Positions 328-13,120 are shown, counted from the first letter of the stretch. The stretch is DNA of 64,000 bases from Planctomycetota bacterium (GCA_035527715.1 DATKZY010000096.1:4350-68349), one strand, 5' to 3'. The notes: generated from the letters alone by a model not told the origin. Numbers and translations are program-made.

Positions 328-2919
328 ATGGACGATTCGAGGCGGACACTGAGCTTCAGGGCGGTGCTCATCGGCATCGTGGCGATGGTGGCGATGGGCA
401 TGTGGGTCCACTACCACGAGGTGATGGCCCCGCAGCCCAACATCCTGGCGGAGAACAACCCGCCCGCGAGCGCCGTGGGCGTCTTCCTCGGCGTGCTGCT
501 GATCGGCGCCCTCATCGCCAAGTTCCGCCGGACCCTTCGCCTCGCCACGGGCGAGCTGATCGTCGTCTACTCGATGCTCGTCATCGCCGCCCCCCTGATG
601 AGCCAGGGCATGTGGCACCGCTTCCTGGGGCTCGTCATCTCGATCCCCGAGCACCAGGAGAACATGCCGCTGGTGGACAGCTATTCCGACAAGCTCTGGC
701 CGCACGGCGAGCACCTGATCGCCGACCGCCGCTTCGCCGACGGCCTCGGGCCGGCGTGCGCGGCCGAGCCGGCTGGGCACGCAGGAAAACTATCTGTCAC
801 CGAATCTCCCGTGGGGGGAACCACGGGCATGCGCCTGAGGGCCGACGAGGGCGAGGAGACTCGTCTCCGCCTCCGCGTTCCTCGCCGCCGCGATGGCCGC
901 GAGCTGCTCGTGCCCGGCGAGCGCTACTATGCGACCGCGCTCTTCAGGCTCTCGGGCTTTCAGAGCCGCTCGGCGCTCACGATGGAGCTGGTGACCGACA
1001 CGGGGCAGCGGGCGCCCATCGTGACGCTGCGGCGCGACACGAATCGGGCATTCTCGCGGCCGGGGGCGTTCCAGCGGGCCGGCCAGCCCTATCTCACGAT
1101 GCCGCGCGACATCGCGGAGTTCGCCGACCTCGACTTCACGCTCAGCGGGCCGGGCGAGGCGATCATCACGGACGTGGTTTTCTTCAGCAACGAGGCGGTG
1201 GCGCGGCTGCGGAAGGGCGTGGCGGAGATCCGCGAGAGCGACCTGGCGAAGCTGCCCGAGAACGAGCGCGACTCGCTCCTCGTGCGGCCCGACAGCCTGG
1301 CCTCGCCCTCAGGCGTGGCCTACACGCTGAAGGGCTACATCCCCTACCGCCAGTGGCTCACGCCGCTCGTCTACTGGGGCAGCATCGTGATGGCGATGTT
1401 CCTCGGCCTCCTCGGCATCGGCGTCATCTTCCGCAAGCAGTGGTCGGAGAACGAACGCTTTTCGTTCCCAATGGTCGTCCTGCCCCGCATGCTGCTCGAC
1501 GAACGCGAGGAGGGGGGCCGCACGATCCGCCCCATCTGGCGCAAGGCCGCGTTCAAGGCAGGGATCATCGTGGCCCTCGCCTTCTGCCTGCTCCAGGGGC
1601 TGAACCACTACATCCCCGGCATGCCCAATCCCACGGTGGAGGTGGACCTGGCGCAGTACTTCTCGTCGCCTGAGATGAAGGCATTCGTCCGCGGCTTCGG
1701 CGGCGCGCAGTTCAAGATCATCCTGCTCTTCACCGCCATCGCGTTCTTCGTGGACCTCGATATGCTGCTGAGCATCATCCTGTTCTTCTGGCTCGCCAAG
1801 GTGCCGTTCTATTTCGGCGAGCTGTTCGGCTGGAAGACGATCAAGGGGCCGATGGACGACTTTCCGTTCCCGCACGAGCAGCACATCGGGGCGTTCCTGA
1901 GCCTGGCGCTCGTCGTGCTCTGGACCTCGCGCAAACACCTGGCAGGCGTGGGCCGCCGCATCCTGGGCCTGAAGGGCGGCGTGGACGACTCGGGCGAGGG
2001 GATGAGCTATCGCGCCGCGGCGCTGCTCATCGTCGGGGCGTTCGTGTTCTTCGGCGTGTGGGGCGCGATGTCGGGCCTGGGGGCCGGCTCGGCGCTCCTT
2101 TTTTTCGGGTTCCTCACCGTGTGCGGGTTGTCGGCCTCGCGGATACGCACGGAGTGCGGTGCGCCGGCGACGTATTTCACGCCCTACTTCCCCTACCTCA
2201 TCTTCTTCCTGCTCGGAGGGCTGTTCACGTTCGGGGCGCCGACGATGGTGCTGGCCTACGCGGCGGGCGGGTTCATGGCCGTCGCGCAGTTCCTCCTCTT
2301 CGCCCCGACGCAGGTCGAGATGCTCCACCTGGCTGACCAGCAGAAGGCCAGCCCGCGCGGCGTGCGCTGGGCGCTCATCGTGGGCGCGCTCGGCGGCGTG
2401 CTCATCGGCGGCTACGTGATGATGGTATGGGCCTACGGGAGGGGGGCCGACAACATTCCGTACATGAAGAACTGGGCGGCCGGCCAGAACTGGTATTTCA
2501 CCACGCTACGCAACGCCACGGCCGAGGCCGACGCCGAGGTAGTCGCGGCGGACAAGCAGGGCGAAAAGCCGAAGCCGCGGTACCCCACCGGGCCGCTCGT
2601 CGGCGTGGGCGTCGGCACGACCATCACGCTGCTCCTGGCGTTCTTGCGGACGCATTTCGTGGGCTTCTGGCTCCACCCGATCGGCTACATTCTGGCGAAC
2701 AGCTATTTCTGCTACATGTGCTGGGGATCGCTGCTCGCCGCGTGGCTCATCAAGTGGGTGGGCTTGAAGATCGGCGGCCCGCGAGCCGTCCGCGAGCAGA
2801 TGACGCCGTTCTTCGGCGGCATCTTCGTCGGATGCGTGGTCGGCATGCTGGTCTGGGATGTCGTCGCCCTCGTGGGCATGGCCCGGGGCGTGAGCGATGT
2901 GTTCACCTGTTTCCCATAG
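328..2919 (+). CDS. Polytopic integral membrane protein A (unknown function) with a roughly 250-aa soluble insertion; paralogous to protein C (8292-10319)
   Basis: Long ORF with many hydrophobic helices. The ATG at 328 (MDDSRRTLSFRAVLIGIVAMVAMGMWV) follows the upstream stop; the ORF-track start at 271 would overlap the previous CDS. The N-terminal region aligns with protein C (RLATGELIVVYSMLVIAAPLMSQGMWHRFLGLV vs RAMTREEMVILLMVASAMIGGSALIPGGPFGQLIWRQFLV). Confidence 0.7.
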   Translation: MDDSRRTLSFRAVLIGIVAMVAMGMWVHYHEVMAPQPNILAENNPPASAVGVFLGVLLIGALIAKFRRTLRLATGELIVVYSMLVIAAPLMSQGMWHRFLGLVISIPEHQENMPLVDSYSDKLWPHGEHLIADRRFADGLGPACAAEPAGHAGKLSVTESPVGGTTGMRLRADEGEETRLRLRVPRRRDGRELLVPGERYYATALFRLSGFQSRSALTMELVTDTGQRAPIVTLRRDTNRAFSRPGAFQRAGQPYLTMPRDIAEFADLDFTLSGPGEAIITDVVFFSNEAVARLRKGVAEIRESDLAKLPENERDSLLVRPDSLASPSGVAYTLKGYIPYRQWLTPLVYWGSIVMAMFLGLLGIGVIFRKQWSENERFSFPMVVLPRMLLDEREEGGRTIRPIWRKAAFKAGIIVALAFCLLQGLNHYIPGMPNPTVEVDLAQYFSSPEMKAFVRGFGGAQFKIILLFTAIAFFVDLDMLLSIILFFWLAKVPFYFGELFGWKTIKGPMDDFPFPHEQHIGAFLSLALVVLWTSRKHLAGVGRRILGLKGGVDDSGEGMSYRAAALLIVGAFVFFGVWGAMSGLGAGSALLFFGFLTVCGLSASRIRTECGAPATYFTPYFPYLIFFLLGGLFTFGAPTMVLAYAAGGFMAVAQFLLFAPTQVEMLHLADQQKASPRGVRWALIVGALGGVLIGGYVMMVWAYGRGADNIPYMKNWAAGQNWYFTTLRNATAEADAEVVAADKQGEKPKPRYPTGPLVGVGVGTTITLLLAFLRTHFVGFWLHPIGYILANSYFCYMCWGSLLAAWLIKWVGLKIGGPRAVREQMTPFFGGIFVGCVVGMLVWDVVALVGMARGVSDVFTCFP

Positions 2920-2924
2920 CCTGA

Positions 2925-2954
2925 CCTCCCGCAGGTTCCAATACCTGCGGGAGG
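2925..2954. promoter_or_regulatory. Intergenic hairpin (CCTCCCGCAGG-TTCCAATAC-CTGCGGGAGG)
   Basis: Perfect 10-11 bp inverted repeat lying between membrane protein A and protein B. Confidence 0.5.
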
Positions 2955-2989
2955 TTGGCGGGGACAGCGGGTGCCTTGTTCCGACATTA

Positions 2990-12264: not shown

Positions 12265-12345
12265 CTCGTGACGCGTGACGCGTGGTCGGAACGCAAGCTG
12301 GCTTGCTCTCTTCCTGTCACGCGTCACGGGTCACGCGTCACGATG
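12262..12345. repeat. Long hairpin of the GTGACGCGTGAC family between the two ABC ATPase genes
   Basis: Arms CGTGACGCGTGACGCGTGGTCGGAA and TTCCTGTCACGCGTCACGGGTCACGCGTCACG, with an inner small hairpin GCAAGCTGGCTTGC. It begins at the stop of ATPase 1. Confidence 0.6.
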
Positions 12346-12373
12346 CCTGAACCGAAGGGATTGGCTGGAGCAA

Positions 12374-13120
12374 ATGCCTGAGCCAGTTGACGTGATCATC
12401 AGCGCCCGCGGCGTGCGGCGCATCTACCGCCTCGAAGGCGAAGAGGTCCATGCCCTCCGCGGCATCGACCTCGATATCGCCCGCGGCGAATACCTCTCGA
12501 TCATGGGGCCGTCGGGCAGCGGCAAGAGCACGCTCTTCAACATGATCGGCGGACTCGACCGCCCGACGGAGGGGGAGATCCTGCTGGACGGCAAGGACAT
12601 CGCGTCGCTCACCGAGCGCAAGCTCGCCTGGCTGCGCTGCAACCGCATCGGCTACATCTTCCAGACGTTCAACCTGCTCCCCACGCTCACGGCGCTGGAG
12701 AACGTGCGGCTGCCGCTCGTCTTCGCGGGCGTGGGTCTCGCCGAGGCCGACCGCCGCGCCGCCGAGACCCTCGAACGCGTCGGCCTCGGCCATCGCCTCC
12801 ACCATCGGCCCGAGGAGCTCTCGGGCGGCCAGCAGCAGCGCGTGGCCTGCGCCCGAGCACTCGTGAACAACCCCGCCGTCGTGCTGGCCGACGAGCCTAC
12901 CGGCAACCTCGACCTGCGCACCGGCGAGGAAATCCTCGCCCTCCTCCGCGAGCTCCAGGCCGAGCGCGGCGCCACCGTCGTCTGCGCCACCCACGACATG
13001 AAAATGCTCGCCGCCTCCGACCGCGTCGTGTGGATCCGCGACGGCCAGATCGAGCGCATCGCACACCGCGCCGAGCTCCAGATCAGCATCAGCTCGCTCG
13101 ATGGCGACACCGTTGCCTGA
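12374..13120 (+). CDS. ABC transporter ATP-binding protein, ATPase 2 (a second, distinct copy)
   Basis: Start at MPEPVDVIISARGVRRIYRLEGEEV. Carries GPSGSGKST, LSGGQQQRVACARAL, VLADEPTGNLD and CATHD. About 60% identical to ATPase 1 by eye. Confidence 0.85.
   Translation: MPEPVDVIISARGVRRIYRLEGEEVHALRGIDLDIARGEYLSIMGPSGSGKSTLFNMIGGLDRPTEGEILLDGKDIASLTERKLAWLRCNRIGYIFQTFNLLPTLTALENVRLPLVFAGVGLAEADRRAAETLERVGLGHRLHHRPEELSGGQQQRVACARALVNNPAVVLADEPTGNLDLRTGEEILALLRELQAERGATVVCATHDMKMLAASDRVVWIRDGQIERIAHRAELQISISSLDGDTVA

Follow-up and report, generated by a model that had tools for sequence, protein, structure and literature searches.

An operon of Planctomycetota and other bacterial phyla joins a type VII ABC permease with a putatively non-catalytic M28-fold head to a membrane protein of predicted OPT/YSL fold

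Introduction

What machine is encoded by an operon in which two FtsX-type permeases and two ABC ATPases stand beside two further polytopic membrane proteins? Six ORFs of this kind, all on the plus strand, occupy positions 328-13120 of a 64,000-nucleotide stretch of Planctomycetota DNA, the whole of which we call the window (Table 1). The original prediction, made from the sequence alone, described a type VII (MacB/FtsX) ABC system whose peptidase-fold head is non-catalytic. No description of the operon's system was found in the literature searched. To our knowledge, type VII ABC systems extract or expel substrates and none cooperates with a secondary-transporter fold; likewise, we know of no OPT protein tied to an ABC system.

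Table 1 Features of the operon, with positions in the window.
Feature	Position	Strand	Product or extent	Assignment or statistic
Gene A	328-2919	+	863 aa, polytopic membrane protein	DUF6785 + DUF6784
A/B twin palindromes	2925-2954, 2991-3020	+	CCTCCCGCRGGT-loop-ACCYGCGGGAGG	z -9.2 versus shuffles
Gene B	3034-8202	+	1722 aa	PA+M28-fold head, FtsX/MacB permease
PA + M28-fold head of B	3166-5103	+	aa ~45-690	
B variant motif NAYCDS	3853-3870	+		
B variant motif APGAQQACG	3892-3918	+		
B variant motif ATQGHGQG	3994-4017	+		
B variant motif LGLDLTA	4627-4647	+		
B variant motif GTPFDTLD	4963-4986	+		
Rest of B periplasmic module	5104-6072	+	aa ~691-1013	beta-rich domains, then three-helix stalk
B/C palindrome	8194-8276	+	inverted GTGACGC heptamer repeats	-49.8 kcal/mol, z -6.2
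Gene C	8292-10319	+	675 aa, polytopic membrane protein	OPT/YSL transporter fold (predicted)
Gene D	10457-11467	+	336 aa	minimal FtsX-type permease
Gene E	11482-12264	+	ABC ATPase	LolD/MacB class
E/F palindrome	12262-12343	+	GTGACGC heptamer type, as B/C	z -6.6
Gene F	12374-13120	+	second ABC ATPase	LolD/MacB class
Post-F inverted repeat	13128-13206	.	perfect 26 bp	-59.4 kcal/mol, z -8.9

Results

Layout of the operon

The six co-directional genes are as first proposed, and the gaps between them, 114, 89, 137, 14 and 109 nt in order from A to F, are small rather than tiny. An ORF that enters from beyond the window start has its stop at 288-290, and A is therefore more likely to begin at 328 than at 271; for D, the ATG at 10457 has an alternative in a TTG at 10451.

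Long hairpins had been noticed at the B/C and ATPase junctions. Both are real, and two more lie between A and B and after F. The twin palindromes of the A/B spacer have loops complementary to each other, and a Shine-Dalgarno-like run (GGGAGGG) lies within the 3' arm of the second one, 13 nt ahead of the ATG of B. They are about 90% identical in the closest relative (locus L003) and belong to no Rfam family, and palindromes of their type were found in over 120 unrelated metagenome contigs. L003 has a related copy of the B/C palindrome at the same junction and lacks the E/F palindrome, its E and F genes overlapping at ATGA. The last repeat begins 8 nt past the stop codon of F and marks the end of the operon; since it has no T-run, it is no classical intrinsic terminator. 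As copies of repeated palindromes, the hairpins are not evidence of operon-specific regulation.

Protein B joins a large periplasmic module to an FtsX/MacB permease

Protein B has eight TM helices in total. A signal anchor (aa 7-25) is followed by a periplasmic module of about 990 residues (aa 26-1013), three extra TM helices (aa 1014-1093) and the permease, in which TM1 (1139-1157) is separated from TM2-4 (1432-1541) by a periplasmic domain (~1158-1431); a cytoplasmic tail (aa 1555-1722), for which Pfam and PDB searches found no family, completes the protein. The permease has the four TM helices and the large extracytoplasmic domain between TM1 and TM2 that are typical of type VII systems: Pfam FtsX matches TM2-4 (1.6e-12, aa 1441-1550), MacB aligns to aa 1389-1559 and some homologs match Pfam MacB_PCD. 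As HMM searches also detected Pfam Peptidase_M28 (5.9e-7, aa 256-337), both homologies originally proposed for B were recovered. No family assignment was obtained for the remainder of the periplasmic module (aa ~691-1013), of which aa ~702-760 may resemble a CarboxypepD_reg-type beta-sandwich; in the secondary structure of the model, the three helices of the stalk (aa 934-1001) run into the membrane. Full-length matches to B measure 1450-1800 aa, and among 995 representative clusters the N-terminal module is almost never seen without the FtsX part.

A profile match to the membrane part much stronger than that of Pfam FtsX came from PADLOC. From the end of the stalk through the three extra TM helices to FtsX, aa 969-1579 align to positions 30-581 of the 810 of PDLC01991 ("CARF_m8--CARF_LolE_TM") with E 3.9e-36; the last ~230 positions of the profile, presumably the CARF part, found no counterpart in the tail of B. 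A second model, PDLC01990 ("CARF_m8--CARF_Beta-galactosidase_LolE_TM"), represents a giant of ~1800 positions with a large N-terminal part. We do not assign the system to the anti-phage defence systems of the CARF_m8 group: the match is confined to the membrane part, the tail has neither a Pfam nor a PDB match, the window region showed no sign of CARF, CRISPR or other defence genes, and PADLOC matched neither A nor C.

The M28-fold head of B retains few metal ligands and no general base

The Pfam match covers only positions 1-78 of the 193 of the M28 profile, and the head comprises a complete PA+M28 aminopeptidase fold, including the M28 alpha/beta fold, interrupted by a helical insertion of ~190 aa (aa ~340-525) that is short or missing in the aligned non-PVC sequences. 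Its active-site positions were mapped by profile alignment to solved M28 enzymes (2ek8 at 9.6e-20), using the numbering of the Aeromonas aminopeptidase (AAP). H97 is replaced by Y276, D117/D118 by Q291/Q292 (in GAQQACG), E151/E152 by G324/H325 and H256 by G644, and D99 is retained as D278. The AAP zinc ligands His97, Asp117, Glu152, Asp179 and His256 thus correspond to Y276, Q291, H325, D535 and G644, the only unchanged one being D535 (in GLDLT), which was equated with D179 by motif position only, as this stretch lies outside the printed alignment. The position of the general base Glu151 is glycine in nearly all members examined, and G-H stands in place of E-E almost throughout the family. Non-PVC members have D117 replaced by Glu and H256 by Asp, and the substitutions across the family follow a pattern and are not random. 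The substituted ligands that had been read from GAQQACG and GH are thereby confirmed. By this alignment, the head lacks its general-base glutamate and, in this protein, most of its metal ligands.

Could the head still be an enzyme, using a non-canonical metal site for hydrolysis or for a cyclase-type reaction? The M28-fold glutaminyl cyclases work with one zinc, and non-PVC members offer a putative site of His/Tyr, Glu, His, Asp and Asp. Of the seven AAP positions compared, B keeps H325, D278 and D535; the other four (H97, D117, E151 and H256) have no metal-binding or general-base side chain, and with the general-base glutamate a glycine almost family-wide we regard such activity as very improbable.

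D, E and F complete an asymmetric ABC system

Protein D matches Pfam FtsX (2.3e-15) and has four TM helices and a periplasmic loop of ~150 aa; its matches to the NCBIfam MacB, LolE and FtsX models are all under cut-off. It is 30% identical to aa 1442-1550 of B and is probably the partner of the FtsX domain of B. Both E and F match Pfam ABC_tran (8.6e-34 and 5.1e-38), are 64% identical to each other and have their best NCBIfam matches in the LolD and MacB NBD models. Their GPSGSGKS, LSGGQQQRV, ADEPT and ATHD motifs leave Walker A, Q-loop, signature, Walker B-Glu and H-loop intact, so that both should be catalytically competent ATPases. The motifs being fully canonical, the asymmetry of the system lies in its permeases and not in its ATP sites. 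In two-ATPase (mainly PVC) loci F forms a separate orthologous group, and two permeases and two ATPases may constitute an obligate heterodimer.

C has the predicted fold of OPT/YSL transporters and A is its remote homolog

The original prediction had missed the nature of A and C. Protein C matched no Pfam or NCBIfam family, and a profile of its family found nothing among PDB sequences. Its predicted structure (pLDDT 79.7, pTM 0.80) displays similarity in Foldseek to barley Yellow Stripe 1 (HvYS1; 7wst at E 5e-9, 7wsr at 3e-8; probability 1.0, TM 0.61-0.68), over the full length and at 13% sequence identity; the next unrelated match had E 0.011 and TM 0.1. Pfam OPT (PF03169) matches neither C nor A and is reached by 3 of 28 homologs of C (best 1.5e-9). 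The model thus indicates that C has the fold of OPT/YSL transporters. More than 3175 homologs exist, which NCBI names "peptide transporter".

Protein A has 12 hydrophobic segments and falls in DUF6785 (1.4e-80; 271.6 bits against a gathering threshold of 25) and DUF6784 (7.6e-17; 61.8 against 26.4). An insertion of ~230 aa (about aa 95-330) is present in alignment A1 only in its two Planctomycetota sequences, and the longer A ORFs of other PVC loci suggest that it is more widely distributed. A and C had been called paralogs, and their homology holds as a remote one: BLASTP gave E 9e-4, and hhalign 82% probability with 6-sequence profiles and 85% (E 6e-6, 446 collinear columns) with profiles of 48 and 55 sequences. 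A therefore appears to be a remote homolog of C, its link to OPT running through the hhalign match to C.

Genetic linkage of B, C and A extends over more than ten phyla

The B family is present in at least 599 species genomes of more than 10 phyla, and all 80 genomes examined are MAGs. The order A-B-C-D-E-F recurs in Planctomycetota, Verrucomicrobiota, Lentisphaerota, Kiritimatiellota, Sumerlaeota and some Armatimonadota, as expected of a cluster conserved as a unit. Of 66 loci, 51 have C directly after B; A directly precedes B in 34 of 47, and a small FtsX gene with an ABC gene lies downstream in 26 of 50. Two ATPases, typical of the PVC-type six-gene loci, follow B in 21 of 50; other lineages have one, or none nearby. 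In many loci that are of Latescibacterota type, of Gemmatimonadaceae type or unplaced (among them L001, L002, L004, L058, L074, L087 and L089), no ATPase or small FtsX was found within 10 kb, and ABC coupling may accordingly be dispensable or supplied in trans. The strongest conserved unit is B with C (and A), not the ABC part, and C is the most conserved partner of B.

These data bear on whether there is a common machine at all: A and C might be stand-alone transporters and B/D/E/F a separate ABC system that merely shares their operon, as loci with B alone or with B and A only (for example L046, L047, L050, L054 and L058) could suggest. Yet B and C are adjacent across the phyla despite rearranged orders (B-A-C, A-B-C and D-E-(A)-B-C), B/C or A/C stop and start codons overlap in L001, L087 and L088, and three of three C homologs picked independently of B adjoin a B gene. 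We consider mere co-location very unlikely.

Clustering of flanking ORFs from 80 loci returned as recurrent neighbors only a PqqD-like gene, a 300-aa unknown, TPR proteins and unrelated enzymes. In 27 loci the ABC part includes or adjoins the PqqD-like ORF, which is of the RiPP-recognition (peptide-chaperone) type and is missing from the window and from L003. No MFP (MacA) or outer-membrane channel gene was found at 1-18 kb of the window or among these recurrent neighbors.

Discussion

The system stands as a type VII ABC system with a non-catalytic peptidase-fold head, because FtsX and M28 homology are both found in B, the canonical ligands are replaced on alignment to solved enzymes, and the cluster recurs as a unit. 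It resembles LolCDE in having two different FtsX-type permeases with LolD-class ATPases, and TM2-4 of B and D align to LolC and LolE. It differs in having two ATPase genes rather than one, in the additions to B (~1000 periplasmic residues, three TM helices and a cytoplasmic tail) and in its OPT-fold partners, and the equivalog cut-offs are not reached (LolD, 226.5 bits for E and 240.9 for F against 307.75; LolC/LolE, 18-39 against 362-540). Relative to the PA-domain M28 aminopeptidases (Aneurinibacillus 2ek8, B. subtilis YwaD/BSAP, P. aeruginosa PaAP and Aeromonas AAP), B lacks the general base and most ligands, contains the helical insertion and is fused to a permease.

FtsEX with EnvC, PcsB or RipC offers another precedent, namely an FtsX-type mechanotransducer with a non-cutting peptidase-fold domain: the degenerate LytM (M23) domain of EnvC activates amidases. 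By analogy, the dead head of B, moved by ATP, could activate or position a separate periplasmic hydrolase, such as a cell-wall one; B/D/E/F would then have no transported substrate, and A and C would import the released peptides for recycling. The family-wide loss of the general base and the peptide-transporter-like character of A and C accord with this. The head of B, however, has an M28 rather than an M23 or CHAP fold and is fused rather than recruited, flanking-ORF clustering identified no hydrolase gene among the conserved neighbors, and the scores are far from the FtsX_Gneg (26 and 34 bits against 255) and FtsE (199 and 214 against 264.85) cut-offs, which makes an envelope regulator unlikely.

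With MacAB-TolC the system shares the 4-TM FtsX topology and the large periplasmic domain between TM1 and TM2, whereas its ATPases are not fused and the operon contains neither a TolC gene nor one for a membrane-fusion protein. From the periplasm, MacB-type systems work outward, and MacAB-TolC expels the enterotoxin STII. Together with the PqqD-like ORFs, this could point to peptide export, in which a ribosomal peptide, chaperoned in the cytoplasm by the PqqD-like protein, would pass through A/C to the periplasm, be bound there by its N-terminus and be expelled by B/D/E/F. Such a route is improbable: the conserved neighbors include neither a precursor peptide nor a modification enzyme, and no membrane-fusion protein or TolC-like gene either; the PqqD-like gene is missing from both the window and L003, and the OPT/YSL transporters characterized so far are importers.

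The reading we tentatively prefer, at somewhat less than an even chance, is a LolCDE-like B/D/E/F mechanotransducer whose non-catalytic head is a ligand receptor and which works with an A/C permease on a peptide-like substrate. The FtsX domain of B would pair with D, as LolC does with LolE, above an E/F heterodimer, and ATP binding and hydrolysis would drive the periplasmic module of B through the membrane, as in the mechanotransmission of MacB, LolCDE and FtsEX. The head would be a non-cutting receptor for a peptide-like ligand, which A and C, as a (hetero)dimeric permease, would carry across the inner membrane. Nicastrin, nicalin, GPAA1 and the transferrin receptor provide the precedent, since their dead M28 domains are recognition modules; all are eukaryotic, have no ABC or OPT link and resemble B at the level of fold only. 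We guess at a peptide-like substrate from the ancestry of three components, namely the aminopeptidase fold, the OPT fold and the peptide chaperone of PqqD type that relatives encode.

Counted against this reading are the lack of a PqqD-like gene in the window, the lack of a secondary-transporter partner in known type VII systems, the loci with no nearby ATPase or small FtsX, and the basis of the OPT assignments (for C, a predicted structure with TM 0.61-0.68 and 3 of 28 homologs in Pfam OPT; for A, 85% to C).

On this reading, the operon would encode a single multi-subunit inner-membrane machine of an uncharacterized type, and its genes recur in many little-studied bacterial phyla.

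A six-gene operon with a conserved core

Refinement of the start codons in the operon region (G+C 66-72%) gives six forward-strand ORFs, A to F (see the table of features), which recur in the same order in relatives. This upholds the six-gene operon of the original prediction; its interpretation as an asymmetric MacB/FtsX-type ABC system with a pseudo-peptidase permease was right in outline and incomplete. An unrelated ORF, cut by the window start and closed by a stop codon at 288-290, lies upstream of A; it has no counterpart in the closest relative (locus L003), and we therefore take the operon to begin with A. 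The GH32, sulfatase and oxidase-like genes downstream are typical Planctomycetota polysaccharide-use genes, none of which recurs beside the operon in related loci.

Features of the operon, its surroundings and related loci (nucleotide positions in the window unless a locus is named; aa, residues of B)
Feature	Location	Strand	Remarks
Gene A	328-2919	+
A/B spacer twin palindromes	2925-2954 and 2991-3020		CCTCCCGCRGGT-loop-ACCYGCGGGAGG, loops mutually complementary
Gene B	3034-8202	+	1722 aa
B signal anchor	aa 7-25		hydropathy
B periplasmic module	aa 26-1013		hydropathy
B three extra TM helices	aa 1014-1093		hydropathy
B cytoplasmic linker	after extra helices, before FtsX TM1		LRKRPVRT, typical pre-TM1 motif
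B FtsX TM1, periplasmic domain of ~275 aa, TM2-4	after linker		hydropathy
B cytoplasmic tail	aa 1555-1722 (7696-8202)	+	conserved, 170 aa
B/C palindrome	8194-8276		inverted GTGACGC heptamer array
Gene C	8292-10319	+
Gene D	10457-11467	+
Gene E	11482-12264	+
E/F palindrome	12262-12343		inverted GTGACGC heptamer array, like B/C
Gene F	12374-13120	+
26-bp inverted repeat	13128-13206		perfect, just 3' of F, without T-run
GH32 fructosidase-like gene with DUF4980, then sulfatase, then FAD-dependent glycerol-3-phosphate-oxidase-like gene	13390-18182	+	downstream of operon
PqqD-like ORF	L009 15963-16535; L024 18932-19435; L062 17346-17987		examples; 24 other loci besides
~300-aa protein	L055 16614-17522; L056 16273-17205; L057 16490-17479; L062 16552-17547; L075 1357-2259; L077 10129-11100		related loci

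The protein collection yielded 79 homologues of B, close to distant, and at least 599 GTDB species-representative genomes contain a match; the family comprises about 700-1000 clusters at 50% identity, and the N-terminal module alone as query returned 995 such clusters. Full-length matches to this module are almost all 1450-1800 aa long, so head and permease form a fixed fusion. The best 80 genome loci, all of them from MAGs, belong to Planctomycetota, Verrucomicrobiota, Lentisphaerota, Kiritimatiellota, Armatimonadota, Latescibacterota, Gemmatimonadota, Omnitrophota, Sumerlaeota, Desantisbacteria, WS1 and Ratteibacteria. The family may have been overlooked because most of its members belong to phyla that are uncultured or little studied.

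Neighbours were counted by HMM annotation of six-frame ORFs, with only loci with enough flank as the denominator for C. C lies directly 3' of B in 51 of 66 such loci and A directly 5' of B in 34 of 47, while a small FtsX gene plus an ABC gene follow B in 26 of 50 loci and two ABC genes in 21 of 50. All three C homologues chosen independently of B adjoin a B gene, and stop and start codons overlap in several related loci. Taken together, the counts, the independent sampling and the overlaps define B+C(+A) as the conserved core; D/E(/F) are its frequent, not universal, neighbours. Gene-neighbourhood conservation, proposed earlier as a check, was found: the exact A-B-C-D-E-F order extends across the PVC phyla (the group that includes this organism), Sumerlaeota and some Armatimonadota, and to L003. 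Other Armatimonadota have the order B-C-(300-aa protein)-(PqqD-like)-D-E and several candidate phyla D-E-(A)-B-C. In loci of the Latescibacterota and Gemmatimonadaceae types, and in some unplaced ones, the three genes are arranged B-A-C, B-C-A or A-B-C, and ABC genes are missing within 10 kb. Mere co-location of unrelated systems, which the recurrent B-C adjacency speaks against, is scarcely probable.

The ABC transporter part

Type VII ABC systems (MacB, LolCDE, FtsEX, BceAB, HrtBA) perform mechanical work outside the membrane; to our knowledge, the targets of all those studied are lipoproteins, toxins, haem or cell-wall enzymes. Pfam searches, suggested with the original prediction, detect both FtsX (1.6e-12, aa 1441-1550) and Peptidase_M28 (a partial match, 5.9e-7, aa 256-337) in B, as well as FtsX in D (2.3e-15) and ABC_tran in E and F. 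For E and F, the best NCBIfam matches are to LolD and the MacB ATPase domain; D and the B C-terminus are matched best by MacB, LolE and FtsX models. All these scores stay well under the curated equivalog cut-offs. B, D, E and F are therefore members of the type VII superfamily and not orthologues of LolCDE, MacB or FtsEX. By analogy they would work most like LolCDE and MacB, yet they fall outside both, as their scores fall short of the equivalog cut-offs and neither an adaptor nor a TolC gene is found. A role like that of FtsEX-EnvC, regulating a putative hydrolase while A and C recycle the products, would sit less well with scores this far under the FtsX and FtsE cut-offs; we consider it improbable.

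Hydropathy analysis places eight TM helices in B; the three extra ones include the invariant residues E1033 and H1064-P1065. TM2-4 of B and D share 30% identity, and this part of B aligns with YtrF, LolC, LolF and MacB chains. A homology search with the C-terminal half returned B fragments only. The cytoplasmic tail carries conserved motifs (DLPFT, WL(K/A)PYDLGVSQ, LRKRFLxWR) and invariant W1679, W1697 and R1698, and matched nothing in Pfam or the PDB, profile search included. The PADLOC model CARF_m8--CARF_LolE_TM matches B aa 969-1579 (5938-7770 of the window) at 3.9e-36, and CARF_m8--CARF_Beta-galactosidase_LolE_TM matches the three extra helices and FtsX module at 2.4e-13; generic FtsX is a much poorer fit to the seven-helix membrane module of B than these CARF_m8 models are. 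The matches suggest that giant FtsX proteins form a wider subfamily, with swappable periplasmic heads and cytoplasmic tails, CARF tails among them. A defence system was considered and rejected: the PADLOC matches are limited to the permease parts of B and D and generic ATPase domains, and nothing else supports it.

E and F share 64% identity, retain all catalytic motifs and form two orthologous groups across relatives. A degenerate ATP site was discarded as well: some relatives seemed to lack the signature motif, and simply have MSGGQ in place of LSGGQ.

The peptidase-like head of B

The predicted structure of B aa 1-1005, built with 40 homologues, is very confident (pLDDT 90.5, pTM 0.90). The best Foldseek matches are M28 aminopeptidases with a PA domain (2ek8 at 7e-16, BSAP, PaAP); NAALADase-L, GCPII and transferrin receptor come next. 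In the sequence alignment, a helical insertion of ~190 aa (aa 340-525) splits the M28 fold of PVC members, whereas other members have a short version of it or none. The split explains why Pfam sees only the first 78 positions of its M28 profile. With the insertion taken out, a head profile matches 2ek8 (9.6e-20), YwaD (4.6e-14) and AAP, the Aeromonas aminopeptidase (1e-9), and also nicalin (2.4e-6) and nicastrin (6e-4).

Active-site positions of AAP and their equivalents in B (by profile alignment to solved M28 enzymes, except D179, by motif position only)
AAP	B, window	Other family members
H97	Y276	H or Y
D99	D278	invariant
D117	Q291	E in non-PVC members
E151 (general base)	G324	G in nearly all
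E152	H325	H in nearly all
D179	D535	nearly invariant
H256	G644	D in non-PVC members

The substitutions originally read as GADDxSG to GAQQACG and EE to GH are correct in this alignment. A large family has conserved these changes, and the head is a maintained non-canonical module, not a decaying one, with an M28 fold and yet probably not an M28 peptidase. It would be unable to hydrolyse peptides, because it is without the general base and has, in this protein, at most a remnant metal site. A still active enzyme with a non-canonical metal site we find hardly credible beside the near-universal G at the position of the general base E151.

In two large genomes, the B homologues (L002 10001-14518 and protein P0048) have an internal duplication of ~45 aa of the LLW(T/M)AGHFQNMAGMRHF stretch, which contains the variant GH motif; it could be real or an assembly artefact.

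A and C, putative OPT-like partners

A matches Pfam DUF6785 (1.4e-80) and DUF6784 (7.6e-17), and C has no Pfam match; neither has an NCBIfam model, and sequence searches with both, and with a C-family profile, matched no solved structure. C is the best-conserved protein of the set (47% identity between phyla; B, 29%), with more than 3175 homologues, of which NCBI names several 'peptide transporter'. The predicted structure of C (pLDDT 79.7, pTM 0.80) matches a single fold in the PDB, that of the OPT/YSL transporter barley Yellow Stripe 1 (E 5e-9, probability 1.0, full-length TM 0.61-0.68); the best unrelated match has E 0.011 and TM 0.1. Pfam OPT is reached by 3 of 28 C homologues. On the model, C is thus predicted to be OPT-like by fold, not by Pfam membership.

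A and C, earlier called paralogues, are remotely and not closely related: BLASTP gives E 9e-4, and the probability from profile-profile comparison is 82% when the profiles hold 6 sequences and 85% (E 6e-6, 446 collinear columns) when they hold 48 and 55. We assign A, with moderate confidence, as a remote member of the superfamily of C.

Possible additional components in related loci

Clustering of the remaining ORFs of related loci uncovered a PqqD-like protein of ~110-130 aa (Pfam PqqD 2e-8, 7e-6 and 5e-4), encoded in 27 loci, either between the pair of ABC genes or ahead of D. In RiPP pathways, domains of the PqqD type serve as peptide-binding chaperones, and this protein is a third peptide-related element, with the aminopeptidase and OPT folds. 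A peptide exporter fed by such a chaperone would account for its position; the gene is absent from the entire 64-kb window and from L003, and we judge an exporter improbable here.

In Armatimonadota-type loci, a protein of ~300 aa is encoded between C and the PqqD-like gene. It has no significant Pfam or NCBIfam match (best E 0.012 and 0.017, far from cut-offs) and may be a further component of the system. In one complete genome, TPR-ExbB-ExbD-ExbD-TonB genes stand straight after B-C-A (L087 13879-17278). ExbB/ExbD neighbours are a slight indication that the system may be connected with outer-membrane uptake; they occur within 10 kb in just 4 of 89 loci (L087, L018, L020, L081), and a TonB link was set aside as too weak.

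Palindromes in the spacers

The hairpins first noticed at B/C and E/F are real, all operon hairpins having z-scores of -6.2 to -9.2 against shuffled sequence. The GTGACGC pattern has 10 matches where 0.86 are expected by chance; a palindrome half copy lies at 41910-41928. L003 carries the B/C copy and A/B palindromes ~90% identical (9892-9987), and lacks the E/F copy, its E and F overlapping at ATGA. The A/B palindrome, with its 12-bp stem and varied loops, occurs on more than 120 metagenome contigs (L090-L169 among them), which range in G+C from 40 to 73%, sometimes several times per contig (six copies in L165). Genes A, B and C are absent from all of these contigs. It is probably a widespread REP-like element, CCTCCCGCRGGT-loop-ACCYGCGGGAGG, whose stem pairs a Shine-Dalgarno-like GGGAGG with CCTCCC.

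No operon hairpin matches an Rfam family, and internal intrinsic terminators are not above chance. Given this and the generic occurrence, we read the hairpins as REP-like repeated palindromes settled in spacers. Specific regulators were rejected, since there is no Rfam family, the A/B palindrome is a generic repeat and the E/F copy is absent in L003. The palindromes may influence how stable the mRNA is or, at A/B, how accessible the GGGAGGG ribosome-binding site of B is. For the inverted repeat 3' of F, the sole Rfam match was a spurious sub-threshold microRNA.

Discussion

This is a type VII ABC system with an unexpected, widely conserved OPT-fold partnership. In the searchable literature we found no paper on DUF6785 or DUF6784 and none joining FtsX, M28 and OPT; the gene set is undescribed there.

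Dead M28 domains of nicastrin, nicalin, GPAA1 and transferrin receptor act as recognition modules. We tentatively favour a LolCDE-like mechanotransducer of B, D, E and F. The FtsX domain of B would pair with D and be driven by an E/F heterodimer (compare LolC/LolE/LolD2), and ATP-dependent dimerisation would be passed on to the periplasmic domains, as in MacB, LolCDE and FtsEX. The non-cutting head would, like those M28 domains, serve as recognition module instead of peptide hydrolase, and A and C would form a transmembrane path for a peptide-like ligand. A bolder version, which we think rather unlikely, is a previously unrecognised class of hybrid transporter, in which an A/C OPT-fold heterodimer is physically coupled to B/D/E/F and gated or powered by it, with the silent head as substrate receptor.

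A large family ties a type VII transducer to two OPT-fold permeases and a peptidase fold turned into a non-cutting module. If these form one complex, it would represent a new mode of coupling ATP to a secondary-transporter fold, and the dead M28 receptor domains known from nicastrin, nicalin and GPAA1 would have a counterpart in bacteria. DUF6785/DUF6784 would also be placed in a functional context for the first time, as would a family of more than 3000 proteins called 'peptide transporter' that lack a Pfam domain. Were the hybrid transporter true, an ATP-controlled, receptor-fed secondary-transporter fold would be widespread, in PVC bacteria, Armatimonadota, Latescibacterota, Gemmatimonadota, Omnitrophota and others.
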